Both the position numbers and the translations under genes were made by a program. Positions 11,277 through 49,365 of a stretch of DNA of 64,000 bases are shown here, piece after piece (position 1 is the stretch's first letter; the number at the start of each line of letters is the position of its first letter). This DNA is from Flavobacteriales bacterium. Lineage in GTDB: Bacteria > Bacteroidota > Bacteroidia > Flavobacteriales > JANQLC01. The notes beneath the pieces are model-generated. The model was not told where the DNA came from. It ran no database searches and worked only from the letters and a program-made list of their open reading frames with translations. Location of the stretch: NCBI GenBank assembly GCA_028280815.1, contig JANQLC010000007.1, positions 81,574-145,573 on the forward strand, written 5' to 3'.

Positions 11277-14200
11277 TTACGCCGTTGCGCGCGCTTTTTT
11301 GCGAAACCGAATCTTTCCCCGCTGCAACAGGTAGAGCATGACCGGTACGATGACCAGCGTGAGGAATGTGGCAAAGGACAGTCCAAATATTACCGTCCAG
11401 GCCAAGGGGCCCCAGAAGACGACATTGTCCCCACCGATGTAAGTGTGTGGATTGTAATCGCTGAAGAGCGAGAAGAAGTCTATGTTTAAGCCCGTAGCCA
11501 GGGGGATCAAACCCAAGATGGCCGTAATCGCGGTGAGCAGTACTGGGCGTAAGCGCGATCGACCCCCCTCTACGATGGCTTCAAAGTAATCCCGCTTTTC
11601 CAATAGCGCTGATTCGTCGAGCCCGCGCTCTGCTTTTTTGCGGTCGATGAGCAGCTGGATATAGCCGACCAAGACGATGGCGTTGTTTACCACGACCCCC
11701 GCCAATGCGATGATTCCCATCATGGCCATGATGATGATAAAGTCCATGTGAAATATCACCAGTCCGAGGAGCACACCGATAAAGCTCATTAAGACGGCCG
11801 TCATGATGATAAGCGGTTTGGAAATCGAGTTGAATTGTGCGACCAAGATCAAGACAATGCCGCCTACGGCCATGAGTAGGGCTTTGATCAAGAAGTTTAA
11901 ATTTTTTGATTGTTCTTCCTGTTCGCCTGTAAATTTATAGCTCATGCCTTTGGGTAGGGGAAAACCCTTCAACTCACGCTTCAGCCGCGCTACGATTTCA
12001 TTGGCGTTGTAGCCTTGTAAAACGTTGGAATAAAGGGTGATGACGCGTTTTAAGTTTTTGCGCTTGATCGCGCTAAACGAAGAAGTGGACACTTTTTTAC
12101 ACACAGTTGATATGGGTACTTGCTTCAATTGGCCATCGGTGATATCCCGGTATGTCACCGGTTGGTTAAAAAGCGCATTTTCATCGTAGCGGTAGTCTTT
12201 GTCGAACCGCACGTTGATATCGTAATCGTCTTTTGGGTCTTTGTAGGTGGATATTTTTTCACCGTACAGGGATCGGCGCAGGGTTAAGCCGATGTTGCTC
12301 GTACTCAAGCCCAGCGCGCCGGCTTTTTTGCGATCTACCCGTATGCGAATGCCGGGCTTAGAACGGTTTACGTCTATTTTTAAGGCTTCGATACCGTCTA
12401 TCTTTTTATCGTTGATAAAGTCGCGAATTTTTTCCACTTCGTCGAGCATAACCGGATAGTCATCGCCTGAGATTTCCAGGTTGATCGGATAACCGATGGG
12501 GGGGCCTACCCAATCTTTTTCCACGCTCATAGAGACGCCTGGATAGCCTTGCACAGCCTTTCGGATCCTTGCTAGCAGTTCTCGGCTGCTCATCCCGCGT
12601 CGGTACTTGTATTCGCGCAACGAAAGGGTGATCTTGGCTTTGTTCGGCATTTCGGATTGATTTCCGCTATCCGTTTGCGGGTTGCCCGCGCCTTCGCCTA
12701 CTTGCGCCACCCCTGACTCCACCATATAGTTGTAGCCGTCTGGGTCTTCGTATTTTTTGATGATATCATAGATGCGCTTTTCAATCGTCTCGGTAAAAGC
12801 GTTGGTCTTTTCGATGTCTGTGCCTTCGGGAAATTCGATATACGCCATGATCTGGTTGGGCAGGGTATCTGGAAAGAAATCCACTTTGGGCTGGGCTATA
12901 CCCACTAAGAAGAAGGACAGCAAGAGCAGCAGTACGGTTCCGAAGAAAAAGTAATATGCGCGCTTGCCGCTGAGGGCAAAGCGCAAAAGTCGTTGATAAG
13001 CGTTTTCCAATCGAGCCAGGAACACATGCTGAAAGTACCGTTCCGCTCGGCTGAGGGCGTATTTGTAAATCCACATCAGCAGGGCAAAGAACAAGATCAG
13101 GTTTCCCAGACCCCTTAAGAAACCGATGTTTTGAGCCCATCCAACGAGTAAAAACGAGGCGCCTACCAGTGCTGAGATAAGGCTTATGCGCACGAGCGCT
13201 TTCTGGCGCATGGTTCTTTCTTTCAATTGCATGAGGTGACTCGTGAGCGTGGCATTGATGACCAAGGCGACGAAGAGCGATGAAAAGAGCACGATGGAGA
13301 GGCTCGTGGGGAAGTAAATCATGAACTTTCCCAAGGTACCCGGCCAAAGTCCCAGTGGAAAGAAGGCTGCCAAGGTGGTCGCCGTAGAGGCGATAACAGG
13401 CCAGGCGAGTTCACCTATGCCCTGGATGGCGGCTTCTTTGCATGACAGGCCCTTTTCATTCATCAGGCTGTGAACGTGTTCAACCACCACGATACCGTTA
13501 TCGACCAACATGCCCAATCCCATCACCAGCCCAAATAACACTATGGTGTTGAGTGTAATGCCCATGCTGTGCAAGATCAGATAGGACATCAGCATGGAGA
13601 TTGGAATGGCAATGCCGACGAAGATGGCATTGCGCAGGCTGAGGAAAAACATCAGCACGCTTACCACGAGAATCACACCCAAAATGATGTTGTTGACCAG
13701 ATCGGCTACTTGGTCTTTAGTCATTTGGGATAGGTCGTTGGTTATGCTGATGTGCAGCGTTTTGGGTAGGTATGTTCGCTGTGCGTCTGCCACGATTGTG
13801 CGAATGCCATTTGTCGCTTCAATCGTGTTTTTGCCGGAGCGCTTTTTCACGTCTAGCATCACGACGGGTTTTCCAAATGCGCGTGCATAGGAGGTGGCGT
13901 CTTTTCCCACAAATGAAATCCGGGCGATATCCCCGAGGTAAACGACTCCGCCTTGCCTTTTGACCACGATGCTTTCCAGTTGTTTTGGGTCGGATATCTC
14001 ACCGACGATTCGGATGTTTTTGCGGATGTCGTTTGCGATGAAATCCCCACCGGAAATGGTTCTGTTTTCCAGCCGGATGCTGTTGACAATGTCGTCAAAA
14101 CTCACTTTGGCAGCCGCCATCTCGTAGGGGTCTACAGCGATTTTGACCTCTTTATCCGGTGCGCCTCGTATGGCTACCTCTTTGATTTCAGGCAGGCGTT

Positions 14201-14738
14201 CGATTTCGTCTTTCAGCTGTTCGCCGTATCCCTTGAGCTGTTGAATGCTGAAATTCCCCTCCAGGTTGATGTTGAGGATGGGGATTTCTTCCGAAATGTT
14301 GAGGTCGAATACCCTGGGTTCCACCTTTCCACCGTTATCCATCACCGGCCATTCGGCTTTGGCTTTGGCCAGGTCAACCTTGTCCTTTACCTTGGCCTTG
14401 GCTTCTTCCACAGCTATGCCTTCATCGAATTCGACGATGATGATGGAGTAGTCCTGCAAGGTGGTAGAGGTGATTTTGTTTACCCCGTTGATTTGTTTGA
14501 ACTCTTTTTCAAGTGGCTCTGTGATAAACTTTTCCACATCTTCGGCTGCATTCCCAGGGTTTGCGGTACTCACGTAAATCTTCGTCTCGATGATTTCGGG
14601 AAAAGCTTCGCGCGGCATGGCGTAATAAGAGAACAGACCACCCAGCAAAATAATCGCGATAATCACGTAAACTGTCACGCGGTTGTTAATCGCCCAGGTG
14701 GAGATGGGAAACCGTTTATCTGTTTTTTTATCGCTCAT
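11277..14738 (-). CDS. efflux RND transporter permease subunit (AcrB/HAE1 type)
   Basis: About 1150 aa with the two-fold TM / large-loop architecture of RND pumps, in an operon with the adaptor and TolC-like genes. The start is set at ATG 14738 (MSDKKTDKRF...); the ORF-track M at 14777 would overlap the adaptor gene by 50 nt. Confidence 0.92.
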   Translation of the reverse strand: MSDKKTDKRFPISTWAINNRVTVYVIIAIILLGGLFSYYAMPREAFPEIIETKIYVSTANPGNAAEDVEKFITEPLEKEFKQINGVNKITSTTLQDYSIIIVEFDEGIAVEEAKAKVKDKVDLAKAKAEWPVMDNGGKVEPRVFDLNISEEIPILNINLEGNFSIQQLKGYGEQLKDEIERLPEIKEVAIRGAPDKEVKIAVDPYEMAAAKVSFDDIVNSIRLENRTISGGDFIANDIRKNIRIVGEISDPKQLESIVVKRQGGVVYLGDIARISFVGKDATSYARAFGKPVVMLDVKKRSGKNTIEATNGIRTIVADAQRTYLPKTLHISITNDLSQMTKDQVADLVNNIILGVILVVSVLMFFLSLRNAIFVGIAIPISMLMSYLILHSMGITLNTIVLFGLVMGLGMLVDNGIVVVEHVHSLMNEKGLSCKEAAIQGIGELAWPVIASTATTLAAFFPLGLWPGTLGKFMIYFPTSLSIVLFSSLFVALVINATLTSHLMQLKERTMRQKALVRISLISALVGASFLLVGWAQNIGFLRGLGNLILFFALLMWIYKYALSRAERYFQHVFLARLENAYQRLLRFALSGKRAYYFFFGTVLLLLLSFFLVGIAQPKVDFFPDTLPNQIMAYIEFPEGTDIEKTNAFTETIEKRIYDIIKKYEDPDGYNYMVESGVAQVGEGAGNPQTDSGNQSEMPNKAKITLSLREYKYRRGMSSRELLARIRKAVQGYPGVSMSVEKDWVGPPIGYPINLEISGDDYPVMLDEVEKIRDFINDKKIDGIEALKIDVNRSKPGIRIRVDRKKAGALGLSTSNIGLTLRRSLYGEKISTYKDPKDDYDINVRFDKDYRYDENALFNQPVTYRDITDGQLKQVPISTVCKKVSTSSFSAIKRKNLKRVITLYSNVLQGYNANEIVARLKRELKGFPLPKGMSYKFTGEQEEQSKNLNFLIKALLMAVGGIVLILVAQFNSISKPLIIMTAVLMSFIGVLLGLVIFHMDFIIIMAMMGIIALAGVVVNNAIVLVGYIQLLIDRKKAERGLDESALLEKRDYFEAIVEGGRSRLRPVLLTAITAILGLIPLATGLNIDFFSLFSDYNPHTYIGGDNVVFWGPLAWTVIFGLSFATFLTLVIVPVMLYLLQRGKIRFRKKARATA

Positions 14739-15906
14739 GGCCTTTTGCATTCTCAATCGATACCTCGTCTCCGTCACTTACGTCGGCCGCCCCTGCTGCT
14801 ATCAGGATTTCACCCGGTGATAGCCCACTGCGCACCTCGGTTAGGGAACCCGTGGTCAGTCCGGTGGTGATAATCCTTTGCTCGGCTCGACCCACATTTC
14901 CCTCACGCTTTGTAATGGTGTAAACTATTTCTTGCCCTTTTGCATTTTTGCGGATGACGTTTTGTGGAATCACCAGTGCTTCGGGGTTTTTGTAATCGGT
15001 GATCTCCAATTTGGCGATGAGGTTGGGTTTTACGAGACCGTCTCGGTTTGGGATGTCCACCTGAATGCTAAAAGAGCGGTTGTTGGGGTTGACGAAGTTG
15101 CTCACCTGACGGATTGTACCGTCATAGGTTTTTCCAATGCTCGGTAAATGCACGTTGACGCGATCGCCTAGGGTGATATTTTCTATGTAATTTTCAGGGA
15201 TTTCCGCTTGTACGTACATGTTTTTCAAATTTACGATACGCATGATTCTCGAACCTGGGGCCACTACTTCTCCACGATTGGACAACACTTGTTCAATCGT
15301 ACCGTTGAAAGGGGCGTGGATCTGCGTTTTTGCCAGTTGGGCTTGCAGCTGCTGAACGCTTTGTCGGGCGGTTTCCGCTTGGGTTTTGGCTTGCAAGTAT
15401 TGCATTTCGGAACCTATTTCTTGATCCCACAGCCGCTTTTGTCGCTCGAAAGTGGTCTCTGCCAACCGCGCTTGCGCCTGGGTTTGTAAAAGCCTTTGAG
15501 CCAGGCCGCCGTCGCCAATGCACGCCAAGAGTTCCCCCTTTTTTACCGTGTCGCCCTCTCTCACATACACCCGATTTAAGATGCCGCTGTATTCTGAAAA
15601 GAGGATCAAGTTCTGCTTGGTTTCTACGTTCCCCTGAATGGCTGTAAAATGCTCGAAAGCGGTATCTCTTACCCGGACGGTGGTAACCGGGATTTGGATC
15701 GACTTGGGATTCAATCGAGATAGGGCCTGATCCAATTGCTCAAGCTCGAGCTCTAGTGCGTCGTATTGTTTTAATATGGAATTCTTTTTTGCCTTGATCA
15801 AGTCGACTTTACCCGTGGCGATAACCGATTGGGTGGTCTTATCGGCTGTTTCTTTCCCACAGGAAAAAGCCAGTAGGATGGGCAGCAGGTAGCATAACTC
15901 TTTCAT
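14728..15906 (-). CDS. efflux RND transporter periplasmic adaptor subunit (HlyD/MFP family lipoprotein)
   Basis: Lipobox LLAFSCG, a coiled-coil hairpin (LQAQLAKTQ) and beta-barrel domains, between the TolC-like and RND genes. Confidence 0.9.
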   Translation of the reverse strand: MKELCYLLPILLAFSCGKETADKTTQSVIATGKVDLIKAKKNSILKQYDALELELEQLDQALSRLNPKSIQIPVTTVRVRDTAFEHFTAIQGNVETKQNLILFSEYSGILNRVYVREGDTVKKGELLACIGDGGLAQRLLQTQAQARLAETTFERQKRLWDQEIGSEMQYLQAKTQAETARQSVQQLQAQLAKTQIHAPFNGTIEQVLSNRGEVVAPGSRIMRIVNLKNMYVQAEIPENYIENITLGDRVNVHLPSIGKTYDGTIRQVSNFVNPNNRSFSIQVDIPNRDGLVKPNLIAKLEITDYKNPEALVIPQNVIRKNAKGQEIVYTITKREGNVGRAEQRIITTGLTTGSLTEVRSGLSPGEILIAAGAADVSDGDEVSIENAKGHER

Positions 15907-15910
15907 GGTC

Positions 15911-17272
15911 TCATGGTTTAATGGGTACGTCTAATGCGCTTCCTAGTTTGGCCCTCGCATTGATCACCTCCAATAGGGATTGTAAATATTTTCGCTGGGC
16001 TTGATACAATTGTCGTTGGGCGCTGTTTAGCTCTTGACTGGTACTGATGCCTTCAAAGAACTTGGTTCGTTCTTTTTTCTCTACGTGCTCGGCTAGGCTC
16101 AGATTTTGCTTCGTGGTCTGATACTGATCTAAGGCAAATCGGTAATTGCTCTTGGCGCTTTGCAGGTTTAATAATATGTGCTGTTCGGTTTGTGCCAAAT
16201 GGTTTTCGGCGATTTTCAGATCGACTTTAGCCGCTTGAATGCGGGCCTTTCTCCCCAAACTGCTAAAGATCGGTATGTGTAAATCCACGCCGAGCAGTGC
16301 CGACCCAAACCACTTCTGCCTGTTTTCGAAAAATGAGAATGAATCGGAATAAGCGTTTTGACCATAACTCAAAAAGGCGGACAGGCTCGGTAGCGATTGG
16401 CTCTTCTCGTGCTTCAGCTGTAGCGTCCGGGCTGCTTTGTCGTTTTCAGCGATGCGGTGGTCGATGTGGCGCGATATCGAGAAGGGTTCTTGTAATATGT
16501 TGTCATTCATGGATTCAGCGGCCAGTTGCTCCATTTTTTGGCTGAGGTGAACGGGCGACTCGATATCGCGCCCCAAGGTCATATTGAAGCGTTCATAAGC
16601 GATTTTTTCCTGGCGCCTGGCGCTGCGCAGCTGGTTTTCCATGCTGTGTAGATTGATCGCCAGCTGTTCGGCATTTTCAATTTCCATCAAGCCGTTTTTT
16701 ACGGCGGCATCGGCTTCGCGGAAACTCTGCTGCAAGACGCTTAGGTTCTCTTTGAGGATTTGAATCATCTCTTCGGCCAGCAGCGCATTTCCGTACGCAT
16801 TGACCACCGATTCGCGAATGCGCTGCTCGGTTTTTTCCCTTGTATTTTTTGAGATGAGCAAATAGGTTTTGGCCGATTGTAAGCCGATTAGATAGGAACT
16901 GTTGAATAAGAGTTGGGAAAGCGTTGCCGAGGCGCTCAGGTTTTGTGCTGTGGTAAAGGGCAACATCTCGTAATCCCCTTTTTTGCCACCAGGAAAAAAT
17001 TCTGCCGGTGTGGGTTGTAGGGGTTTTTTTAAAAAATTTTTATAGTCGAGCTCTGCACCGATTTGTGGCAGTCCGATACTCGTGGACTCCCATTTTTTTT
17101 TCCTTGCCTTTTGAATTTCACATGTCGCATCTCGGATGGCATAACTGTGCGCTAAGGCGTATTGTAAAGCCGCTTTCAGGCTGAAGCTCACTGGGATGGT
17201 ATCACCGCGATGTTGTGCGAAGAGAAGACCATGGGTAATGAGACAAAAACAAATGAATAACTGTTTTTTCAT
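15911..17272 (-). CDS. TolC-family outer membrane efflux protein
   Basis: A signal peptide and two OEP-type repeats. It is the first gene of the efflux operon. Confidence 0.88.
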   Translation of the reverse strand: MKKQLFICFCLITHGLLFAQHRGDTIPVSFSLKAALQYALAHSYAIRDATCEIQKARKKKWESTSIGLPQIGAELDYKNFLKKPLQPTPAEFFPGGKKGDYEMLPFTTAQNLSASATLSQLLFNSSYLIGLQSAKTYLLISKNTREKTEQRIRESVVNAYGNALLAEEMIQILKENLSVLQQSFREADAAVKNGLMEIENAEQLAINLHSMENQLRSARRQEKIAYERFNMTLGRDIESPVHLSQKMEQLAAESMNDNILQEPFSISRHIDHRIAENDKAARTLQLKHEKSQSLPSLSAFLSYGQNAYSDSFSFFENRQKWFGSALLGVDLHIPIFSSLGRKARIQAAKVDLKIAENHLAQTEQHILLNLQSAKSNYRFALDQYQTTKQNLSLAEHVEKKERTKFFEGISTSQELNSAQRQLYQAQRKYLQSLLEVINARAKLGSALDVPIKP

Positions 17273-17843
17273 CTATGGTGATTTGATTTTTAAAGCGCGG
17301 GTTTGGTATTTGCCTTTGACCGTGGTGAATGCTGTGCAGCTGGTGTGCCAAGGGTCCGCTCACCCGTCCCCAGTAAATTTTGCGATACATGCGGCAGGTG
17401 GTAGACCGCCTTTGTAGCGATGCGGTAGGTGAATGAGGTGGTGCTCAAAATTTTTTCTTCCATGGGCTTTGCTCAGGTGCAAATGTATGTATAACTCATA
17501 TATCAAGCGTACGGGGAAAAGAAGGCCTTTGGTTTTTGCACTGTTAGTAATCACGATGTTCGCATGGTTTGCCCGATAAATACATCCGGGTTTATCGCGT
17601 AACGAATTTTACGACTCTCTGCTATCCTCGCATAGGGGTTTTCGCCAAAGCGCTTGTTTCACCGTTCTTATTCCATTACTCGGCTTCTTCAGCGATATAC
17701 CTCGCCATCATACCTTTTCGGTTCTTCTTAACGGATTTTTTAAATTTTGGACGTCTTACCTTTCCAAAATCAGGCGATTCCTCTTTCAACCCTTACGTTA
17801 AAAAAACATTAACTACATCTGCCAGACCCTTAAAATCGAAAAT

Positions 17844-17978
17844 ATGAGAAAGACGTTGTTTTTTCTGATCGCAGTCGTTCTCAGCCTTACCACCGGTTGC
17901 AATGAAGATCGAGGAATCGTATCTCAATCGGATACCGGGATAAAACCGGCCGGCTCAATCCCGGAAGCGATAAAATAG
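17844..17978 (+). CDS. small putative lipoprotein (44 aa), possibly the 5' remnant of a disrupted longer gene
   Basis: MRKTLFFLIAVVLSLTTGC has a signal peptide plus lipobox. The TAG at 17976-17978 is in frame with ORF 17982-18185. Too short for the ORF track. Confidence 0.3.
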   Translation: MRKTLFFLIAVVLSLTTGCNEDRGIVSQSDTGIKPAGSIPEAIK

Positions 17979-18334
17979 CCGATGCCATCACCTATCATCA
18001 ATACCATTTTTAGGGGCGATAGCCCAAATACCGAAGAGGCCGGGCAGTCAAGCGGTCTGGAAGGGAGGAAAATCTCCAAAGGGGATAGAGCCGATATCAT
18101 CGATATAAAGGATCGTAAAAAAGAGCACATCTTAAAATGGGTCTGCTTTAAACCCCGTGGTTACGCCTTGATCAGCGCGCTTTGAAAGGCATCCCGAATC
18201 CGGCGGTCTCGTTCTATTCGGAAGGAAAGTTCGATCGAAACCATCCCAACTCCGGGATGGAATATTTTTTATTGTTCAACCCTTCATTGTTTTTTACAAT
18301 ACATTTTAAGTCTGATGCGTATTCGTTTCTCGTT

Positions 18335-20850
18335 TGGTCGCTTGAAAAGGAGAACTCGTTTTGGCGCTCGCCTGTAGGTCAGTAAAAAGCATTTTTTATC
18401 GTCTGACGGTTTAAAGAAGCGGACTTGTCCTTTTGTTTCTGCACTGTGTTTCAGTTGCAAAATGCCGACTGCGGCCTATAATTTGCACGGGCCTGAATCG
18501 CCGGCTCTTATTTTTTTGCTCTTATCCCTGTGGTCAGCTGCGCTGGCCCCGCTACGCAGGTTTGGTAAGAGATGGGCATCTAAGGGGTCAACCCCTTGAT
18601 TCTTTATTGTATGTTCTTCTCAATTGGGTAGGGCCTGAAAGGCTGGTGTTGTTTTCTCGTCTTTGTCCTTTTGTGCGCGTTTGGAGGCTTGGGTCTTGTT
18701 TTCTCGCTGCTGTTTGGCCTTTATAAAACGGCTTGTTTTGCGTTGGGGAGTTCCCGCGTTTTTTGCTTTGTTTCGCCGGTGTTTTGACGAACTGTTTTGT
18801 CGGTTGCCTTGCCGGGTTATTGGGTTGTTGTGTTGCGGTGGGCTGACTGGTTTGAGCTGGCTTGGATTGAGCAGCTGGGTTTGGTTTAGATTGGTTTACA
18901 CAAGGTGTTTAAAAGGCGTTTTTGACAGGGGAAATGAAGGCGGCTCGGTGGTGGCTATGGGTGGGTTGATTTGTTCAGTGGGCAGTGTATGGGTCTATCG
19001 GTTGAATTGGGTGGCTTGGATTGGGTTGTTGGGTTTTGTTGTCGATTGTGTTTGTGGGGCTGGCGAATTGTTAGCTCGGTTGGTTGCCTGACTTTGGTTT
19101 GATTGCTCAGGTGCTGGTTTGTCTTCTTGGTTTTTCTTTTGTGTTGGCTTGATTTCCACCCTTTGGTTTTGTTCTCTTGGGCTTGTTTAAGGGTTTGGGG
19201 CTGTTCTTCCGTTTCTGTTTGTCAGTTTAAAAGGGTTTTTGTCCTCAACCTCTTGAAAAGGGAGGCTTGCCTTTTTGGCTTTGTCGTTTGGGGCGTTTGG
19301 TTGGTTGAATTGGGGTGCGGTGTCGTTGTATTGGCTCGGTTGGGTTGGCACAAAGTGTTTGAAAGGTGTTTTTGCCATTGGGAAAAGGCGGGCCCGTCGG
19401 CGGCTTCGGGTCGGGACTTTTTTATGCTAAGCGGTTTTGAGTCAGCGGCGCTTTCGTATTGATAAAGGTTTGCATTTCACTGGCTTGCTGGGTTTGGGTT
19501 GGTTGAGTTGGGTTAGTCGAATTGCTCTATTGGTTTAGTGGGTTGGTCGGGTGGTGGTTGGTTGACTGGCTTGACTTGGTTGGCTTGGGTTGAGTGGGTT
19601 TGTCGGGTTGGATTGTTTGAGTTGATTGACTCGTTGGGCGTAGTGGGTGCGGTTCGATTGGATTACGTCGGTGCGGTTGGCTTGGATGGGTTACAGTGGA
19701 CTGCGCTCGGTTGGTTTGTTGTGGTTCGTTTGGGTTTGTTTCGGCGTGTTGCGTCGATGTGTTCGTTGGGGTTGGGTGATGGTCTTGTGATGCGGCGGTT
19801 GGATTGGGTTGTGATGCAGGGCGTTGCGTTTGTTTCGTTTGTTTTTTTACCATCCTTGAAAGAAATAAACTACTGCTGTTTTGTATGCTTGTGCTGAGTT
19901 GCTTAGCCCCTACTGGGTTGTTGCGTTGCGGTGGATTGGCTGGCTTGGATTGTCGTAGTGGGTCGGTTTGGGCTAGCCGGCTTGGATGCGCTGATCGATT
20001 GCTTCAGTAGCTTGGTATGGCTGGTTTGTCAGTGTGATTCATCGGGTTGGACTGGGTTGATTTGGATTGGCTCGGTGGATTGGTTTAGTGGATTGGGTTG
20101 CTTCGCACGGGTTGGATGGGTTGTGGTGGTGTCTTTGTGTTGATCGATTGTATTCTTCCTCTTCGATTCCTTTGGTATGGGTTTTTTCTGTGGTCGATAT
20201 AGGTGGATTTTAGACTTCTCGTTTTTTGTCCCTTCTCCTGCAGTTGGTTTTTTTGCGTTTGGCTTTCCGCTGATTGGCTTGGGTGGTTTTGGGCTGGATG
20301 GGCTTGTTTGATGCGTTGTTGCGTTGCTGCATGGCGGTGAGTCGTCGCATTGATTGTGTCGGATTGTTTGATAGGCTTTGAAAGAAGTATGACCCTTGCT
20401 GTTTCGGGTGCTTGGTCTCTCTTGGTTTTGTCGGGTGGGCTGGATTGGCTCGTCGGGCGTAGGGGGGTCGTTTGGATTGGGTTAGGTGTGTGCGATTGGG
20501 TTGGATGGTTTGCGGTTGGTCGGCTCGTTTTCTCGGTTTGGCTCTTTTGTGGTGGCTTGAAGCAGGCGGTTTGTTTTCTCCCTTTTGTGCGCGTTTGAAA
20601 ATTCGCAGCCCTTTCCCCTTTGGCCATTTAAAGAGCGGGGATTATTTTTTGCAAAGGCGTATTGTCTTTCTGGTTTTTCCCTTTTGCGGGCCAAAGCGGG
20701 TGTTCTCGTCTTTGATCGCTGGATTGGGCTTTTCGTCTGAGATGTGTTCTCAGTGCGCTTGGGGTCGAAGGCCTGTCGCCCAATCGGTCTGTTGGAGCTT
20801 TTCGGCTGTCTTTGAAAACATCGGTGTAGCGGTCGAAGTGAGGCTCCAAT
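18335..20850 (+). repeat. G+T-rich non-coding composite repeat block, locus 2 (largest)
   Basis: 2.5 kb without a credible gene. The two lines I counted (19561-19620 and 19741-19800) are 83% and 82% G+T. Contains GGNTTGG simple repeats, GTTTGAAAAG-type units and the conserved box GTGTTT(G/A)AAAGG(C/T)GTTTTTG at 18903 and 19354. Confidence 0.75.
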
Positions 20851-20852
20851 GG

Positions 20853-21941
20853 CTATTTTGTCCCGCCCTGTAGCATCAGGTAAGCCTTGAGAAAGGGGTC
20901 GAGCTCACCGTTCATCACCGCCTCTACCTCAGGGGTTTCTACACCCGTTCGCACATCTTTGACGAGTTTGTAGGGGTGCATGACGTAATTTCGGATCTGG
21001 GAACCCCACTCTATTTTTTTCTTGCTGGACTCGATTTCACTCTGTTTGGCGCGTTTCTTTTCCAATTCGATTTCGTATAGGCGAGAGCGCAGCAATTGCA
21101 TGGCTTTTGCTTTGTTTTCCAATTGCGAGCGCGTTTCGGAATTCTCTATGACGATGCCGGTAGGCCGGTGCTTCAGGCGTACGGCTGTTTCGATTTTATT
21201 GACCGCTTGCCCGCCGGCGCCGCTCGAACGCATGGTTTCCCATTCGACATCGGAGGCGGGAATTTCGATTTCAATCGCATCGTCCACCAAGGGGTAAACA
21301 TATACGGAGGCAAAAGAGGTGTGCCGCTTGGCATTGGCGTCAAAAGGGGAGATACGCACCAGGCGGTGTACACCATTTTCGCCCTTCAGATAGCCAAATG
21401 CATAAGCGCCGGAAAATTCTAAGGTAACGGTTTTTACGCCGGCTACCTCGCCGGCTTGGTAGTTGAGTTCTCTGGTTCTATAGCCGTGCTTTTCGGCGTA
21501 CATCGCGTACATGCGCATGAGCATGGAAGCCCAATCGCAGCTCTCCGTTCCGCCGGCTCCAGCGGTTATTTGAAGCACGGCATCCATCGCATCTGCTTCA
21601 TCTGAAAGCATATTTTTGAACTCCAAGCGCTCCAAGCCTTTTATCGTCTTTTGATACTGTACTTCCACTTCGGCCTCCGCCGCTTCTCCTGCCTTTAAAA
21701 AATCGAAGAGCAGCTCCAAATCCACAAAGTCTGCGACCCGACTCTCGTAATCTGTGATCCAGTTCTTCTCGAGTTTCATCTCCTTCATCACCCTTTGGGC
21801 TGCCTTCGGGTCATCCCAAAAACCGGGCCTGGCCGCGAGCTGTTCCGATTCCGCAACCGCCGCTTTTTTCTCCTCGATTTTGAGGTGTCGCTTCAGCTCG
21901 GTAATGCGTTGACCCACTGCGCTTAACTGTTCTGCCGTCAT
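20853..21941 (-). CDS. prfB: peptide chain release factor 2
   Basis: Contains the SPF motif (RISPFDA) and the GGQ motif ([10 protein letters not shown]). The start is set at ATG 21941 ([20 protein letters not shown]), giving 363 codons including the stop. The frame is continuous, with no programmed +1 frameshift site. Confidence 0.93.
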
Positions 21942-22003
21942 GATTTCGTGCGGTTCAGCTTGTAAATATACGGTGTATTTCAAATGGGTTGGGGATACAC
22001 TGT

Positions 22004-22435
22004 CTATCGCAATTGGATGCCATATCGATAACGGATAAACTGGAAGTAGTTGTAGAGCTTGTAGTTTAACTTTAGACCGTATTCTATATCCGGGCGGTAG
22101 TCGATATAGGTGCTGTAGAAATCCGGGTCGTAGTGCATGGGGTCCTCGTGTCGCCGATTCCATTCGGCCACATAGAATAGGTTTTGCGTTTTGTAAAAGC
22201 TGTTGCTGTGATACCAATCGGGACGGGCGATGGACTTGAGATAGGTTTCATAACTCGGGTCTAAGACGATTAAGTCGTAGCGGTTCCCATCGCTTTTCAC
22301 CAGCTGTAGGGTATCGCTTTTCACCGGTTTTTCAGGTATTTTGACGGCTGCCTGACTTTTGGAAATCGCGTGTATCGTATGGCAGGCGTGGGTCAGCAAG
22401 GCGCTGAGGCTTAGTATGAGAATCACCTTTTTCAT
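22004..22435 (-). CDS. secreted/lipoprotein of unknown function (resembles DUF6146-type Bacteroidota proteins)
   Basis: A signal peptide ([18 protein letters not shown]) followed by [14 protein letters not shown]...YVAEWNRR...YNYFQF, recalled as a conserved Bacteroidota family. Confidence 0.65.
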
Positions 22436-22678
22436 CGGCTTGGGCTTTTTCTAAAAGGTGTAAAAAGCGTGCCAAAATCGAGTACTAAGTTATCAAAAAT
22501 ATCCGTTGCGCGCTGTGCGCTTTCCCATTTGCGCTTTCCACCGCTTTTCTCGGCTCGGGTACTCGGCGCTGGGCTCGGGTAATTTTTATTGCTATGCTGT
22601 GTTCAGGCATACCGATGAGCATAGGGCTCGTTTGTACCTTTGGGTGGCACTTTTGGTTTTAACCCTTAGCTTTGTGGG

Positions 22679-23164
22679 ATGCATACATTTCCAGATCCCG
22701 AAGCGCTCGACAGCGTAGCTGCCTTTCACGACTTGTTCGATTTGCCGGTATTGGAAGAGCCGCACCTGCCCAATGCGGCGCGCACCGCGCTTCGGATCAC
22801 CCTCTTACAGGAGGAATTGGACGAGCTCAAAGAAGCGGTTGCCAACCGGGATTTGGTGGCCGTAGCGGACGCTTTGGCCGATTTGCAATACGTGTTGAGC
22901 GGTGCTGTCCTGGAGTTTGGCCTGGGTAAAAAGTTTAAAGCCCTATTTGACGAGGTGCAGCGTTCCAATATGAGTAAGGCGCCGAAAACCCGGGCGGAAG
23001 CCGAGGCTACCCGCCGCCACTACGAGCGGAAAGAGCGGGTTGAAGCCGAGATCGTCCCACGCGATCCCCATTTTCTGGTCTATCGAAAATCGGATAAAAA
23101 AGTGCTGAAATCCATACACTACAGCCCGGCGGACTTGAAGCCCATCTTAGCGCGATCCGACTGA
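22679..23164 (+). CDS. MazG-like nucleoside triphosphate pyrophosphohydrolase family protein
   Basis: An all-alpha MazG-like core: LLQEELDELKEAV...VAVADALADLQYVLSGAVLEFG...EVQRSNMSK. Confidence 0.7.
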   Translation: MHTFPDPEALDSVAAFHDLFDLPVLEEPHLPNAARTALRITLLQEELDELKEAVANRDLVAVADALADLQYVLSGAVLEFGLGKKFKALFDEVQRSNMSKAPKTRAEAEATRRHYERKERVEAEIVPRDPHFLVYRKSDKKVLKSIHYSPADLKPILARSD

Positions 23165-23232
23165 GCGCTGCAAAATTCTGAAACGAACCTAAGGGAACCC
23201 CGTTGGCTATCTGATTGAAAGGAGGTCGGGGA

Positions 23233-23651
23233 TCAGCTCTCGGAAAGGGTGGTGGTGTGATCCCGTAACTCCTCACCGAGATGGGTTGTGTTTAAAGTGG
23301 GCAAATTAACAGGCGGAAAGCCCGATAGGTTGGTCAATGTGGAAATATAGGCTCTGATATAGGGAAACAGCAGGGCAGGAGCGTTCACATAAAAAAATGT
23401 ATCCAATTCGTCAAGCGCCGTTTTCTTTTTGAAGCTATAATCAGCTGTTGCGTCAATCTCAATGTGAAATGATCCGTTCTCAGCTTCAATCTCTACGCCT
23501 AAGGACAATTGAAACCTACCCTTTTCTTATCTATTACACCTTTGGGAGAAAAGGCTATGGACAGCTCTTTAGGCAGCTCACCTCTCTTAGGGCACTCGAT
23601 TAATGAACGGGTGATGGTATAGCCTTTAAATTGAGATTTTGAATGTTCCAT
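23233..23651 (-). pseudogene. SecB-like chaperone, interrupted by a single-base frameshift
   Basis: The C-terminal ORF carries the SecB signature NAPALLFPYIRAYISTLTNLSGFPPVNLPTLN. The N-terminal part starts at ATG 23651 (MEHSKSQFKGYTITRS...) and runs into a TAG, while the downstream frame opens in the overlap around 23505-23530. The total of 419 nt is one base short of 140 codons. Confidence 0.7.
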
Positions 23652-23656
23652 ATTGC

Positions 23657-24046
23657 TCAAGCGGCCAGTGCATGGACTTCATCGTGCCGTGGGGTCATGG
23701 CTTTAGCATAAGCACTCAGAAATTTGAATTCGGGAATGGGCTTATCAAGGTGAATTTTCTCCCTATACCCCAACTCGTACCCCAACTTGAGGTCGGCATG
23801 TTCTATCTCGGTTAAGGAGTCCTCCGAAATAAATAGGATATCTTCCTGTAGAAACAAGGATTCAAATTCGTCCCATATTTTTTTCTCTTCCAGTATATAA
23901 TCTTCATCGTTTTCAAAAAAACTCAAAGCAATCACTTCGATTGTATGTCTACCAGTACAGAACCGATATTCATATCGAATTCGGATTTGTGGAAACTTTG
24001 CATGTAGCGCCTTCAATTCTTTCGTTACAAATTCGCTCGCTGTCAC
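23657..24046 (-). CDS. hypothetical acidic protein (129 aa), middle gene of the HEPN/SecB-like operon
   Basis: GTG start with a 4-bp GTGA overlap on the upstream stop; its own stop lies 5 nt before the SecB-like ATG. I recognise no domain. Confidence 0.6.
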   Translation of the reverse strand: MTASEFVTKELKALHAKFPQIRIRYEYRFCTGRHTIEVIALSFFENDEDYILEEKKIWDEFESLFLQEDILFISEDSLTEIEHADLKLGYELGYREKIHLDKPIPEFKFLSAYAKAMTPRHDEVHALAA

Positions 24047-25973: not shown

Positions 25974-26555
25974 CTATGAGGAAACGTGCTCCCAATTTTC
26001 GCCCTTTTTGATGCGGTAGAGTTGCATTTCCGAGATGCCGAATTGTTTGGCGATCATTTTTAAGCGGGTCTTTCGGTTGGGATCGAAGATCCTTCTCTTC
26101 AAGTACTTCACCCGGGTCTCGGTCAGCTTTTTCCCCGCATAGGGCTTGCGGTTTTTATTTTTGGCCTTTCCCAGTATGACATTGGGATTGCGCTCGTGGT
26201 GTTGAACCAATTCGTCTTTGGACACCCATTTCAAATTGGACCAGTGGTTGTTCAACTTGTTGTAATCGATATGGACTATAAATTTTTGCTCTGCTTTCGG
26301 CTTGGGTAAGAAATACTCGGCCACGAGCTGGTGCAGGTACCTGCTCTGATGCAAGAGCTTATCCCGTTTGCTTTTTAACCATACCCGATATTTGAAGACG
26401 GGGTATCCCTCGGCCAAACAGCCTTTTAAGAGCCTACCCTTTTCCAAGTTGGTCTTAAAGCTCATCAAGCGCCCAAAGTCGGAGATGGCATACCGGAATT
26501 TTAAACGGCATTCTAAGGCTACTTCTCTCCATTCTTCTCCAGGGAAGAATCGCAT
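25974..26555 (-). CDS. NUMOD4-motif HNH endonuclease with C-terminal helix-turn-helix
   Basis: GEEWREV...YAISDFGRLMS (NUMOD4), HIDYNKLNNHWSNLKW (HNH_3-type), and a C-terminal MIAKQFGISEMQLYRIKKG. The start is set at ATG 26555. Confidence 0.8.
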   Translation of the reverse strand: MRFFPGEEWREVALECRLKFRYAISDFGRLMSFKTNLEKGRLLKGCLAEGYPVFKYRVWLKSKRDKLLHQSRYLHQLVAEYFLPKPKAEQKFIVHIDYNKLNNHWSNLKWVSKDELVQHHERNPNVILGKAKNKNRKPYAGKKLTETRVKYLKRRIFDPNRKTRLKMIAKQFGISEMQLYRIKKGENWEHVSS

Positions 26556-26861
26556 TATATGTTTTTTGCAAAGGTAAAAATATCGGGCGATAGATTCACT
26601 TCGTTTAACTTGGATGGAAACCTTTGCACCTGGGCTGAAAATGACGGGATGCATTGAAATTTAGACGAGCGATAACTTCTGCGGGATTCAAAGCTGGGAA
26701 AAATGCGTGGATTTGTCAAGAAAATTTGGCTCTACGTGAAAGCTCAGAAAGGGATTTTTGCCAATCGAACAGCGAGTCCAGGATTCAATGGGCTTGGGTT
26801 TCACAGCGCTTAAAGGAATATCCAATATGGACAGCACGAGTATGAGGAGTGCTCAACCCGC

Positions 26862-34709: not shown

Positions 34710-34837
34710 GGTCCCTCACACCGGACCACCTTTGGAATCGGATAAAAATAACCGAGCCTAGCTTGAATCGACGGGGCTATCGGCTTTGTTTTGAAACTTA
34801 CGGGGCTTTGGCGATCAGCAGGGGAGACTCCATTGCG

Positions 34838-35645
34838 GGCGGGTTTCTAAATGGTGTTGCTCCTGTCGATTTTTTGCATTTGCTTTTCTACGGTTGGTGA
34901 TGGTTAGATTTTGAGCTGGGTTGTTTTTTGTCCTTGTGTTCTCCGTCGGGTTTTTGCACTTCTCATCTCTTTGCTTCTTGTACGGGTCGGTTTTTTGCAT
35001 TTTTTCTACCATTTGGTGTGGATGGACTTTGGATTGCATGGGTTGGGTTACTCAATTTGTTCAGTGTGCTGTTGCCTGATTGGCGTGTGAGCCTGTCGGC
35101 TGGTTGGGTTGTTTGATTGGGTGTCTCTTATCGGTTTTTTGCATTTGTTTTTCTCGGGCGGGTTTTGGATCCTGTGGGTTGGATGGGTCTGTTCTTCATC
35201 GAGTTCCTCGCGTGGGTTTTATGCTTGGCGTAGGTGGGTTTTGAGCTGTGTTGCATTTGCAATGGCTGGACGGGATCGGATCTTTTACACGGGTCTTTTC
35301 TGCGATGGGTGTGGGTGGGTTTTGGACTTCTCGCCTTTTCCCCTTTTTCCTGTTCGGATTTTTTGCATGGGCTTTTTCTGTGGCTGGTTTATGCAGTTTT
35401 GCCGGTTGGTGTACGTCATTTCGCTCTCGTTTGTGCGCGAGTGCATTTGTCGGGTTTTTGCATCGGCATTTTTCGGTTGATGTAGTTGAGTCGGCTGGAT
35501 TTCCACCCAGTGTTTGAAAGGCGTTTTTGCCCTTGGGATTAAGGCGGCTTGTCAAGGGTTGCCAGTCGGCGCTTTTTTACCTGAGCCGTTTTGGGTCGAC
35601 GGCGTTTTTGTATGGATCAGGGCTTGCGTTTCGCTTGAGCCTGGT
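34838..35645 (+). repeat. G+T-rich non-coding repeat array, locus 3
   Basis: TTTTGCA(T/C)TT-type motifs at 34870, 34951, 34991, 35135, 35358, 35451 and 35466. Segment 34987-35134 matches 1383-1529, and 35509-35645 matches 19354-19492. Confidence 0.7.
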
Positions 35646-35685
35646 GAATGGATATAGTCGTTAGTCGGCTTTAACCCTATGGCAG

Positions 35686-37392: not shown

Positions 37393-37445
37393 TGGATTTC
37401 CACTTGTCCACAAAAGTAATATTTCAAAGCCATACAGCAAAGGAC

Positions 37446-37476
37446 TTGTTCAAAGCGGAGAATAGTACTACATTTG
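37446..37476 (+). promoter_or_regulatory. Bacteroidota sigma-A type promoter (TTG-N20-TACATTTG) for rpsF-rpsR-rplI
   Basis: TACATTTG at 37469-37476 matches TAnnTTTG, and TTG at 37446-37448 lies 20 nt upstream. The rpsF ATG is 32 nt downstream. Confidence 0.45.
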
Positions 37477-38749: not shown

Positions 38750-40275
38750 CAGCCTCAGTTTTTGCATTTATGCGGTGTCTCGTTTGTAAAATCCCAGTGT
38801 CGCATAAATCATATGTTTGGGCTTCAAAGGGGATAAGCTCGTTTTTTTGTTTTATCCCCATAGGGTTGATTTAAAAGTCGGTCTTCCCATTTTGTTTTAG
38901 CCTTGTGAGATCGGCCTGAAAACCCAAGCCTATCTCTCCCCTATGGGTCTATCTGAAAAGCGCCTCTTATTTTTGGCGCTTGTGCATTCCGGTTGTAAAA
39001 TCGCAATCACCTCGTCGGTCAAACCGGATCAACCTCAAGGGTTTTTACCATATAGTTAAACTAAGGGACTGAAGAATAGATTTGTCTTTATCTTGTGAGA
39101 GTGGTTTGAAAGGGGTCTATTTTTTGATCCCATCCCTGTTGTGGGGCCGTTTGAAAGGGAGGCTTATTCTTTGATTTTTGCCTATCTCTGTGGGTCGGTT
39201 TAGAAGGCGAATTGTTTTTCCCTTTCCGTTTGGTAGCTTAAAAATGAGGCTCGTCTTTTGTTTTGCCTTTGTCCTCTCTGGTGCAGGTCCCGATGTTGGC
39301 CTAAATCGAAAGTGTCTAAACAAGGGTTTATTTTTTGTGCTTGTCCCTGTGTGGGATTTGAAGGGGGCTTATTTCTTTGTTGTCGTCCTTGGGATTCGGT
39401 TTAAAAAGTCGGTGCTATCTCTCGCCCTGTGAGGTGGAGCTGAAAAGTGGGCATGCTTTTCTACTTTTGTGTTGATCTGAAGAATCCGCCTTGTCTTTGG
39501 TTTCCGTAGAGCCAGTGCGGCTGGGTTTTGTTGTATTTTCAACTTGGGGGCATTCTGAAAAGCAGGGTTTACGCTTTCACTTTGTCCTTTTGTGGTAACT
39601 CGGTGGGGCAGGGATTTATTTTTTGTTTTTGTCCTGTGCGGCAGTTTAAAAAGGGGGACTCTTGTGCCTACCTCTGTTGTGCCCCGGCTGCAAAATCCCA
39701 ATCGCGTCATCGTGGTCAAATCGGTACAGTACTGCCTTGGGAAACGGCTGAGAAGGGGCTTATCTCTTTTTGTGTTTATCTGTGCAGCAGTTGGAAAGTC
39801 AGATTTGCTCTTTGGTTTTATCTCCGTATGGATATAGCAATGCGAAAATCCAGCTCTGTCTCTTTCTTCTGTGTGACGGTTTGAAAAGCGGCCTTATTCT
39901 TTTGTTTATATGCTTCCAGCTGCAAAAGTCCAATTGCATCGTCGATCAAATCGGAAGGGACTTGTTTTTTGTCCCCGAGGAGCCTGGAAAGCGGGTCTTG
40001 TCTTTATCCGGCGTATCGGTTTTGAAAATGGGGTGGTTTTTTTGCCTTTGTTCTGGTTTGGCAGTTTAAAAAGAGCGCTTTTTTGTCTGATCGGCAATCG
40101 ATTTGGGTTGGCTCCACTGGTTTTATCAGGTGTTTATCCCGGCGTGCTTTGGTCTGAAAAAGCGGCTTTATCCGCTGTGAGGAGTCTGAGTCTCCAACTC
40201 TATTTTTGCCCTTTTGCGCGGGTTTGAAAGAGATCGTCCTATTTCTTTGCGTTTGCCTCTACGCGCTTTGGGTGT
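38750..40275 (+). repeat. tandem array of roughly two dozen degenerate 36-60 bp units (GTTTGAAAAG...CTTATTCTTTTGTTT...CTGTG), locus 4 of the GT-rich family
   Basis: Unit starts read at 39103, 39149, 39198, 39237 and so on (periods 46, 49, 39). A sub-repeat CTGCAAAA(T/G)(C)CCAAT.GC.TC.TCG..(G/A)TCAAA(T/C)CGG occurs at 38992, 39687 and 39918. A TTTTTGCATTT motif lies at 38758. Confidence 0.75.
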
Positions 40276-40388
40276 GGTAGCCGCCTAGTGAAAACCCTTT
40301 GTAAGCCTGGCACGGCGAGAGGAGAGAAACGCGCAAAAGTTGAGGCATCGGGATAGAACCGATTGGTGTATGAAGCGTCCCAACGCAT

Positions 40389-47861: not shown

Positions 47862-48314
47862 GGTCGAAATTCGGTCTGCAAAGCTACGAAAAACCAAAAG
47901 CCTTAGAGCAGAAGGCGCCTCGGGCTACTCGGAGGAATTTGTAAGACCTTGCTTTTATTTTATGGGGTATTGTCCTTCTCGGGTATCAGAAAGCCCGTAT
48001 GGAAAATTTGGTCTTTTGTCCCGCATTTCGCTCCATTCGCCTGCATCCCAAACCACTGCTGAGCGGCATGCGCTTTTTACAGCTTTTTTTAATGGAGCAC
48101 TTCGCTTTAGACCCTCTCATCGTTGTTTTTTTGTTATATTTGGCATTGGGTTGACTGCTGCGCCAAAGGCTGTGCTGCGCGCTGGGGAAGCCTGTTCAGC
48201 GGGTAGAGAGAAATAGGGGGCCGGTGCACTTTTGGTTTAACAGTCTCGGGTATCCAAAGTCGGCCAAGCTGAAAACAGCGACTTTAAAAACTGCATTTCG
48301 GGGGTAACTCGAGT

Positions 48315-48644
48315 ATGCTTGCCATGAAAAGAGGTGTTTTAATGGCAGTGCTAAGCGCGGGAATCTTGGCTGTGTTTTCGTTTAGAGGGGTAAAAAACAC
48401 CGGTGTGTCGCCCCGCCTGGCAGAGGTTGGAGCCTGTTCGATAGGGTCCGGTGACTGTGATAACTTTACGGAAACCTGCAGGACATCCTCGGATAAGTTT
48501 ACGGAATGGCGTCGGACCTGGAGTAAGTATTCTCCTACCACTATCCCCACTGCTAAGAAGACAGAATCGAGTAAAGAGGTGGATAAAGCGAAAAAAGAAG
48601 CGGAAAAGGTGAGTGAGATTAGCCATGCATTAGAGCGGTTTTGA
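48315..48644 (+). CDS. small secreted/membrane-anchored Cys-containing peptide (109 aa), unknown family
   Basis: An N-terminal hydrophobic segment, a core with three Cys (GACSIGSGDCDNFTETC), then DKFTEWRRTW and a K/E-rich tail ending SEISHALERF. The coding frame is supported by protein-level similarity to the decayed copy at 49055-49331. Confidence 0.5.
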   Translation: MLAMKRGVLMAVLSAGILAVFSFRGVKNTGVSPRLAEVGACSIGSGDCDNFTETCRTSSDKFTEWRRTWSKYSPTTIPTAKKTESSKEVDKAKKEAEKVSEISHALERF

Positions 48645-49054
48645 TCCAGTAGGCATCTTTTTAAAGGCGAGAAATATATTTATGCCTGCCCAGGCCTGCT
48701 ATTCTACCCGTTTTGCGACCAATCCGATTGATCGGTCTTACTCCGTGTGTATCGGAAACCACATCGGCTACAGCTTTTGCGAAATGAACCCAGTTGCTTC
48801 ATTCAAAGATTGATGAATACGAGAAAAAATATAAGGCCGAAAAGGGCAAAGACGAGATAAAGGAATCCTTTTTTTAGTCCAAAAAGCCGGCTTGGTGAAA
48901 CGGTTAAAGAGAATGTCACAAGAGGCTAATAAGGTGTTGGTCAATCGGTCTTTTGTGGCATACAGATCTGAGCTAATTATATTGCCCATTATGGATGCTT
49001 TTCAAAACCTTTTTTTGGTTTATTGTTGAATTACATAATTCAAATATACCTGTG

Positions 49055-49331
49055 GTGAAAAAGTACTTTTAATCGGCGTGCTCGGCCTGGGAATCTCAAT
49101 CTTGGCTTCATTTAGAAACGTAAAAACAACGATGTGGTGCCCACTCTGACAAAGGTCTACGCCTATTCGCTAGGCTTTGGTGTATTTGAAGAATCTTATC
49201 ACGTGACACCGGATAAATTTGTGAGTTGGCATAGGCGGTGGGTTGCGTATGCGGATTGTCCGGGGCCGCGTAAAAAATTGGAAGAGGAAGCAAATGCGAG
49301 CGAGATCAGCCGGGCATTAAAGCCGCTTTAA
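49055..49331 (+). pseudogene. decayed paralogue of the 48315-48644 peptide gene (two frameshifts, all Cys lost)
   Basis: Three frames joined by hand give MKK / VLLIGVLGLGISILASFRNVKTTM / VVPTLTKVYAYSLGFGVFEESYHVTPDKFVSWHRRW...ASEISRALKPL. This aligns with the upstream peptide; C to Y substitutions occupy two of the Cys positions. Confidence 0.45.
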
Positions 49332-49365
49332 TGACATCTCTTTTAAAGCCTGAAAGTATACACTT

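Follow-up and report, generated by a model that had tools for sequence, protein, structure and literature searches.

What is a gene-free tract more than 2 kilobases (kb) long, one strand of which is mostly G and T, doing between an efflux operon and the release factor 2 gene, prfB, of a bacterium? The tract (hereafter the block) lies at 18335-20850 of a 64,000-nucleotide (nt) stretch of a Flavobacteriales genome (GenBank assembly GCA_028280815.1, contig JANQLC010000007.1); that whole stretch is the window referred to throughout. Kilobase-scale non-coding low-complexity DNA is rare in bacteria, and the first-pass annotation of this DNA, made from the sequence alone, offered as possibilities a long GU-rich or CA-rich RNA, a protein-binding or structural DNA array, and a strand-specific mutational or expansion product. 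The answer toward which the evidence leans, on balance, is that the block belongs to a family of strand-polar repeat arrays, non-coding and specific to this lineage, whose growth and decay proceed through local duplication.

The + strand of 18335-20850 consists of 11.7% A, 15.8% C, 33.7% G and 38.8% T (G+T = 72.5%). In 500-nt windows between 18501 and 20750 the G+T content ranges over 70-77%; the mean for the window is 54% (standard deviation 6). The GT richness of one strand, reported by the first-pass annotation, is borne out; the accompanying figure of about 80% is too high (74-77% is reached in the core), and the base counts given for two segments are exact (25G/25T/5A/5C at 19561-19620 and 27G/22T/3A/8C at 19741-19800). 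There is indeed no credible gene between the efflux side and the prfB stop codon, and the gene-free zone is wider than had been thought, extending over 17273-20852, from the start of a TolC-like gene (17272) to the prfB stop (20853). For comparison, 1.39 megabases from 81 other Bacteroidota loci (80 prfB loci among the matches listed, and one contig of the same genome) are free of 500-nt windows with a G+T content over 68% or under 32%; a prfB-based scan of genome contigs yielded, among the matches listed, only distant Flavobacteriia (≤79% identity) and no similar blocks.

Is the block real? Logan assemblies of three sequencing runs (SRR20820732, SRR20820734 and SRR20820735) reproduce it, from 17261 onward and through its entire length, at 100% identity and without gaps, so the misassembly that had been named as one way of dismissing it can be set aside. 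The three assemblies are also identical in block length, and the three runs may sample one population. The block is real DNA and not an assembly artefact.

The block is repetitive at several scales. Its principal features are as follows (GT-rich runs being defined by 100-nt windows of at least 65% G+T):

18561-20820, + strand: B2, the GT-rich array proper, 2260 nt, 74.1% G+T.

18896-18935, + strand: degenerate copy of a conserved box (GGTGTTTAAAAGGCGTTTTTGAC), from the repeat family and alignment.

19347-19380, + strand: the box AGTGTTTGAAAGGTGTTTTTGCC, a well-kept GAAAG / G-run / T-run unit.

19385-19425, + strand: A-tract, GC hairpin and T6, resembling a bidirectional intrinsic terminator (-16.7 kcal/mol, z -0.2).

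19480-20150, + strand: the most extreme core, a decayed TTGGN pentamer (NCCAA on the minus strand) located by autocorrelation; it includes the G-rich run at 19541-19564.

20085-20627, minus strand: open reading frame (ORF) of 180 amino acids, called as a gene in Logan contigs; its only match among 5.8 billion protein clusters is itself.

20555-20720, + strand: GAAAG-type units at the prfB end of B2, from the unit consensus.

At the largest scale the block consists of five related sub-segments of 430-520 nt (18400-18895, 18896-19346, 19347-19846, 19847-20369 and 20370-20800): nine of their ten pairwise local alignments score above every composition-matched null (z 3.2-11.5), the tenth pair having z 2.2. 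Two kinds of unit recur at a finer scale. The shorter, of about 40 nt, has the consensus TTTG-AAAAG-GGGG-cTTaTTTTTTG...CCTGTGG (abbreviated GAAAG / G-run / T-run); it fills the edges of the block and a further array, B4 (listed below), and its copies are 28-45 nt apart where they are most densely packed. The longer, of 110-205 nt, has the core TCGGnTTTTTGCATTTGTTTTTCT, its copies also being called TTTGCATTTG units. A profile hidden Markov model (HMM) of this longer unit finds eight copies with E values no higher than about 1e-3, seven of which had served for training, and three weaker ones; all are on the + strand and in arrays B1 and B3 (also listed below), with one marginal match in B2. The 19480-20150 core adds its own periodicity, with autocorrelation peaks at lags of 5, 9, 14 and 19 nt and TGGGTT, GGTTGG, GGATTG and GGCTTG as its commonest k-mers; Tandem Repeats Finder reports periods of 14 and 28 nt at 59-65% matches, the copies being strongly degenerate. 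Head-to-tail copies of a recognizable unit make the block a tandem-repeat array.

Much of this had been glimpsed by eye. The short motifs that the first-pass annotation listed are there in number (GGGTTG 17 times, GGTTGG 17, GGATTGG 9 and GGCTTGG 8), the interspersed units that it pointed out correspond to GAAAG-type units near the places given, and its box, besides the copies at 18903 and 19354 that it named, has another at 35510. By alignment to the unit consensus, this box is a well-preserved copy of the 40-nt GAAAG / G-run / T-run unit. The hairpin that follows it at 19385-19425 is no more stable than shuffled sequence (z -0.2); a homologous stretch occurs at 35540-35580, in B3.

The block is not alone. 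At least five arrays that are GT-rich on one strand occur within about 70 kb, of which they make up roughly 8%; the search for further loci that the first-pass annotation had proposed thus adds four of the same polarity to B2:

About 1011-1860, + strand: B1, between tRNA-Ser and bamD; its units, four to five in number and 143-205 nt long, share the core TCGGnTTTTTGCATTTGTTTTTCT.

34781-35650, + strand: B3, where an M42 peptidase gene and dnaX converge; TTTGCATTTG units, then the box at 35503-35535 and hairpin/T-runs.

About 38800-40300, + strand: B4, between rplI and sucC, with milder GT richness; about 19 GAAAG / G-run / T-run units.

L133 11930-12294, + strand: B5, after a + strand M20 peptidase gene, about 5.1 kb past the right end of the window; 74% G+T.

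The units of B1 match the HMM at E values of 3e-16 to 1e-3, every one on the + strand, and the bamD promoter adjoins the 3' edge of this array. In B4 the units are 37-45 nt apart where most densely packed. A Logan contig that reaches 5.5 kb past the right end of the window stops inside B5, which has modules in common with 35283-35325 and 1490-1518. Modules are shared in direct orientation only, and by loci that are 33 kb apart: 1383-1546 of B1 is 86% identical to 34987-35151 of B3, 1352-1406 of B1 is 93% identical to 35102-35154 of B3, and 19327-19481 of B2 is 75% identical to 35481-35635 of B3. The order of modules varies from one array to another.

How old are the arrays, and how do they change? 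Two sister genomes, L119 (ENA ERZ23496374) and L122 (NCBI GCA_044670265.1), were reached by way of homologues of two flanking proteins; their genes are about 79-88% identical to those of the window. More distant contigs (L121, L124/L125) were also recovered, and among relatives with a name the closest are Flavobacteriaceae, whose DnaX is about 50% identical. L119 retains the gene order prfB - spacer - TolC, with flanks that are 79-84% identical; its spacer is 1.49 kb long, vs 3.58 kb in the window, and has no blastn similarity to it; it is filled with GAAAG / G-run / T-run units, about 17 in all, whose polarity is that of the window block. In L122 the array beside the efflux operon likewise consists of GAAAG units of the same polarity; rplI is on its far side as the result of an inversion. 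Neither sister array can be aligned to the window block. With each other they are homologous, about 88% identical and interrupted by indels of 11, 21, 23, 74 and 130 nt, several of which amount to one or two units (the coding regions of L119 and L122 are 88-94% identical, and identity in the flanking genes of the sister genomes is 84-94%). The other spacers are no more constant: that of B3 is 945 nt in the window and 119 nt in L122, where it already carries one GAGAAGGG / T-run unit; that of B4 is 1750 nt in the window, vs 240 nt in L124 and 135 nt in L125. Overall, spacer lengths vary 2-13-fold across genomes. The substitution spectrum, both among paralogues and between L119 and L122, is dominated by transitions, as everywhere, and its direction is unreadable without an outgroup.

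Judged from these comparisons, the array family, its positions and its polarity are common property at the level of the genus, the TTGGN core and the TTTGCATTTG units have the look of expansions peculiar to this genome, and the arrays change far more rapidly than the neighbouring genes. The first-pass annotation had allowed that the block might prove to be a private simple-sequence expansion with nothing corresponding to it at the orthologous locus or elsewhere; this holds for the TTGGN core and fails for the family, position and polarity, which are shared with the sister genomes and with other loci. Among the possibilities that it had put forward, that of an expansion product fits best, the repeats being nested, the indels unit-sized, and the orthologous spacers far shorter or unalignable.

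The L122 inversion deserves a closer look. It corresponds to 17.3-38.6 kb of the window and places TolC beside rplI (L122 7840-8757 vs window 17273 and 38638); the sucC-rplI adjacency of the window is the ancestral one, according to L124 and L125. The junction lies inside an array, which is GT-rich on its TolC side to about 8620 and CA-rich from there on its rplI side. The arrays may be fragile or recombinogenic spots.

Homologous modules at dispersed intergenic loci (85-93% identity) and the missing B3 at the orthologous site of L122 suggest another origin: non-autonomous mobile elements, either of the rolling-circle type or resembling miniature inverted-repeat transposable elements (MITEs), inserting with a strand preference and carrying an internal minisatellite. 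A possible layout of "leader" (GAAAG units) and "tail" (box and hairpin/T-run) would suit such elements, and there is a precedent in BrickBuilt, a minisatellite-bearing MITE of Porphyromonas gingivalis whose 23-nt repeat is clean and whose terminal inverted repeats are small (PMC4596501). Like BrickBuilt, the arrays are found in the Bacteroidota, are strictly intergenic and restricted to a lineage, exist in many dispersed copies, may affect transcription (PMC4596501), and have a tandem-repeat core with distinct flanking subunits. Unlike BrickBuilt, they are degenerate and nested, extend to 2.3 kb, are skewed toward G+T on one strand, have a single polarity and lack inverted ends: only chance-level inverted pairs of 10-13 nt were found, none of them at array ends. 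Comparing the B3 boundaries with the L122 spacer reveals no clear target-site duplication (the alignment is poor), module order is not constant between arrays, and no transposase is nearby. Moreover, the "empty" L122 spacer already has its one GAGAAGGG / T-run unit, which fits growth in situ. We consider a mobile element decidedly unlikely.

A second parallel is the heptamer TAACTGA, whose direct-repeat arrays are found between genes in Beggiatoaceae, Cyanobacteria and some Bacteroidetes as exact 7-nt units in 2-43 copies, mostly just upstream of start codons (PMC4679880). In common with them, the present arrays are abundant intergenic direct repeats without predicted RNA structure, patchily distributed in phylogeny and differing by unit-sized indels between related strains; a chromosome-wide orientation has been noted for some TAACTGA sets as well. 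What sets the present arrays apart is the absence of a fixed short unit and of any connection to start codons, their kilobase length, and their extreme keto skew.

REP/BIME and ERIC elements and CRISPR arrays are also repeated, non-coding and intergenic. REP and ERIC elements are imperfect palindromes, none of which are seen in the present arrays; CRISPR arrays consist of exact repeats with unique spacers, and here the repeats are degenerate and the "spacers" are themselves homologous.

Might the block be, after all, a gene? Its minus-strand ORFs include two of 108 and 180 amino acids, the latter listed among the predicted proteins of NCBI- and Logan-derived collections, and it could be argued that they are what is left of a decayed or unusual, low-complexity, P/T/Q/N/K-rich minus-strand coding sequence. 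None of 10 ORFs in the gene-free zone matched Pfam, the 180-amino-acid ORF is without a homologue in the protein clusters, and no 3-nt period is detected in the block, where the autocorrelation lags are 5, 9 and 14. Between paralogous modules of 86% identity there are frame-breaking indels (1, 5 and 8 nt), and the orthologous array in L119 is dense in TAA stops. The 180-amino-acid ORF is very likely a spurious gene call attributable to stop-codon depletion, the origin that the first-pass annotation had ascribed to all the long ORFs on both strands. With three independent assemblies identical, the coding and artefact readings are largely refuted and, taken together, barely credible.

A further property of the arrays is their polarity. 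All five are GT-rich on the + strand, and the window holds no block of opposite polarity; the flanking genes are oriented +/+, -/-, +/-, +/- and +/unknown. Within the four long spacers, GAAAG/T-run units favour the + strand 9:1; elsewhere the ratio is 8:8. With what, then, is the polarity aligned? Third-codon positions, read in + strand letters, give these skews:

Genes on the + strand: TA skew +0.13, GC skew -0.02.

Genes on the minus strand: TA skew +0.11, GC skew +0.15.

Since T exceeds A in both gene classes and the mean GC skew is positive, the + strand is probably the leading strand. G+T is 46-60% in the ordinary spacers of the window and 52-57% at third-codon positions, and because these values are so much lower, a general mutation bias cannot account for 74%. 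A purely strand-specific mutational origin, which had been one of the first-pass suggestions, is thus not supported. Nor does the block look like a replication origin; there is no cluster of DnaA boxes (TTATCCACA-like), with none in B1-B3 and one one-mismatch match in B4 (38852), and the DnaA-box-like matches in the window, 19 vs 11.5 expected, are scattered.

That five arrays share one polarity regardless of how the flanking genes are oriented, and that this polarity agrees with the apparent leading strand, also invites the thought that they are selected, replication-oriented DNA elements (Chi-like, KOPS-like, or GT tracts of the kind preferred by RecA), which would stimulate or direct recombination or repair on the single-stranded strand of the fork. 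The efflux-side array holds its polarity in three genomes despite turnover of its sequence, and an inversion breakpoint falls inside an array. RecA is noted to prefer TGG-type GT-rich DNA (PMC3763553), which, like Chi, resembles the arrays in being GT-rich on one strand; in the arrays this polarity is tied to the apparent leading strand and one of them is at a breakpoint. The known Chi and KOPS sites are dispersed 7-8-mers and not kilobase arrays, and Chi, a single dispersed octamer, is recognized by a nuclease-helicase; no such motif is defined in the arrays, and no single short motif has been shown to be enriched outside them (64 kb is too small for a genome-wide motif skew). The array sequence, furthermore, drifts at about the same rate as neighbouring genes, with large indels besides. 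Selected polar elements are, on this evidence, rather unlikely; the more specific proposition, that the lineage maintains kilobase-scale GT tracts on the leading strand (the lagging-strand template) in order to load recombination or repair proteins or to direct a DNA translocase, should be called simply unlikely. Were the arrays polar elements, their polarity would flip exactly at ori and ter and they would be hotspots of rearrangement.

Do the arrays act through RNA? Long non-coding RNAs, GU-rich or CA-rich according to whether the + or the minus strand is transcribed, could titrate an RNA-binding protein in the manner of a sponge: short motifs are repeated at 5-nt and roughly 40-nt spacing, hairpin/T-run modules end some of the arrays on the + strand, and the minus-strand RNA is predicted to be single-stranded and accessible (-20 kcal/mol over 201 nt, z +1.5). 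The promoters that such RNAs would need are not in evidence, however. The Bacteroidetes promoter pattern TTG-N17-23-TAnnTTTG is absent from the inside of every block, and is found elsewhere in the window at 674-704 (tRNA-Ser), at 1813-1843 (bamD), and at 37411-37440 (minus strand) and 37446-37476 (+ strand), between the divergent dnaX and rpsF-rpsR-rplI genes; a σ70 promoter scan gave matches at chance level. (A σ54 -24/-12 reading of TGTCGG...TTGCA, made by eye, was rejected for wrong spacing.) Rfam 15, whose use the first-pass annotation had suggested, offers no family: there is no match at E ≤ 1 in 15000-24000, and at gathering score the entire window and L119 yield nothing except tRNAs. 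Fold z-scores of the box regions on the two strands (+1.4, +1.5, 0.0 and -0.3) disclose no excess stability over composition-matched shuffles, the alignable copies are too few for a covariation test, and hairpins in the GAAAG units were considered and discarded, only some units pairing and the A-run/T-run stems being weak. The earlier idea of a long structured RNA loses its footing here, since excess fold stability is lacking on either strand and no Bacteroidetes-type promoter lies inside the blocks. As for a sponge, its units are not conserved between genomes that are 84% identical and the box is not found in other metagenomes: a scan of JGI metagenomes returned seven box matches, none in a GT-rich context, which are taken as chance. 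We regard a sponge RNA as distinctly improbable.

Searches of plasmids and phages gave no match, and a scan of viral sequences gave none to the box and 32 single matches to the T-rich core. The first-pass verdict that this is no normal intergenic region therefore stands, in the sense that the DNA is non-coding and belongs to no RNA or repeat family known from Rfam, plasmids or phages. Its G-quadruplex reading, with the likeness to the thrombin-binding aptamer, went too far: three-tetrad motifs (four G-runs of at least 3, loops of 1-7) number zero in 18335-20850, and the 23 two-tetrad motifs compare with 15.7 ± 3.8 in first-order Markov simulations of the same composition. As a description of the block, the first-pass annotation was correct.

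In 78-nt windows the minus-strand RNA of the arrays has C/G above 1 in 98% of cases and above 2 in 60%, vs 3% elsewhere, with a median of 2.3; an excess of C over G in 78-nt windows is the criterion that has been used for Rho loading sites (PMC6407284). With C in excess of G, a weak fold and no gene, this RNA has the composition of a Rho-utilization (rut) region. The terminator scan identified no intrinsic terminator-like site after prfB on the minus strand, and read-through on that strand would run from prfB into B2, from dnaX into B3 and from sucC into B4. The resulting RNA would be long, untranslated, unstructured, C-rich and G-poor, an ideal substrate for Rho loading; on the + strand, T-runs and a few hairpin/T-run terminators would add to termination. 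The arrays would thus act as transcriptional insulators, B2 shielding the co-directional efflux operon from prfB read-through. Like rut regions (PMC6407284), they would yield a C-rich, G-poor, unstructured and untranslated transcript after genes that lack an intrinsic terminator; unlike rut sites, which are about 70-80 nt long, non-repetitive and oriented with genes, they are 10-30 times longer and repetitive, and their polarity on the chromosome stays the same even where the preceding gene is on the + strand. Given the nature of the predicted minus-strand RNA, insulation would be a likely side effect of the arrays.

How might such arrays come about? One can imagine a seed unit whose G-run and T-run supply the G+T richness, which slippage of TTGGN then amplifies. 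Arrays would grow from the seed by slippage or unequal exchange, and their growth would depend on orientation relative to replication; this last element of the proposal would explain the uniform polarity, and orientation-dependent expansion is suggested by the match between array polarity and the apparent leading strand. The arrays would make no sequence-specific product, and their main effect would be passive.

Several considerations weigh against this account of strand-polar arrays turning over by local duplication, with insulation as a by-product: 1) Five of five arrays would share a polarity by chance with a two-sided probability of about 0.06. 2) The direction of replication is read from skews within a 64-kb window only. 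3) Modules that are 85-93% identical at distant loci require ectopic conversion or mobility of a kind not found. 4) That three genomes retain a same-polarity array next to the efflux operon could be due to selection instead of neutral turnover. 5) An insulator role leaves B1 and B5, which are downstream of + strand genes, unexplained; it is for this reason that insulation is taken to be a side effect and not the cause of the arrays. 6) A length of 2.3 kb far exceeds what a Rho loading site needs.

The surroundings of the block contribute observations of their own. The flanking features are:

15911-17272, minus strand: TolC-like outer-membrane factor (Pfam OEP), first gene of an RND efflux operon (11277-17272) that continues with membrane-fusion protein and ACR_tran genes.

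17273-18560: left spacer, of ordinary composition and gene-free; the first GAAAG-type units are at 18340-18440.

18241-18275 and 18581-18610, + strand: terminator-like hairpin/T-run sites in and near the left spacer, from a hairpin scan; both are better candidates than the hairpin at 19385-19425.

20853-21941, minus strand: prfB, the right flank, with a 362-amino-acid product (Pfam PCRF and RF-1); RNA reading through from it into the array would be CA-rich.

About 1 kb of the left spacer (17300-18300) is DNA of ordinary composition without a called gene that ends in the + strand hairpin/T-run terminator at 18241-18275 (the fold of 18235-18280 has -12.7 kcal/mol, z -2.7). A small gene or RNA of the + strand, unannotated and divergent from the efflux operon, may lie in this segment; the segment matches neither Pfam nor Rfam, the ORFs of the whole spacer (17273-18560) are likewise without a Pfam match, and similarity to the relatives is absent past 17307. 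Just upstream of the TolC-like gene, at 17261-17287, four Logan contigs from the three runs come to an end (three from the right at 17261, one from the left at 17287), which suggests a repeated k-mer or a strain variant at that point. On the other side of the block, the prfB frame is open far upstream of the called 362-amino-acid product (20853-22217, minus strand), and that product is full length; the programmed +1 frameshift that occurs in the release factor 2 genes of many bacteria is thus seemingly lacking here.

Farther along, a homing-endonuclease-like gene (NUMOD4 and HNH_3) is lodged amid housekeeping genes at 25974-26654 on the minus strand; its product has 226 amino acids in the window, 196 in L119 (5171-5761) and 286 in L122 (20236-21096). 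The window as a whole has a low coding density for a bacterium: ORFs of at least 150 amino acids cover about 45 of 64 kb (approximately 70%), to which small genes add a few kb. The arrays account for part of this, and there is a further 1.5-kb gap of ordinary composition at 47898-49365.

What does it mean for a bacterium to carry such DNA? With about 8% of a 70-kb stretch given over to arrays of a single polarity that change fast and include an inversion breakpoint, this lineage bears an unusual non-coding load. There are practical consequences: the arrays break short-read assemblies, and their depletion of stop codons yields spurious "proteins", of which the 180-amino-acid ORF in public databases is an example. 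If their polarity does track replication, they would offer a bacterial model of orientation-dependent repeat expansion and of GT-rich, recombination-prone DNA; if they serve to insulate operons by loading Rho, they would illustrate how DNA that resembles junk can be tolerated in the spaces between operons, or made useful there.

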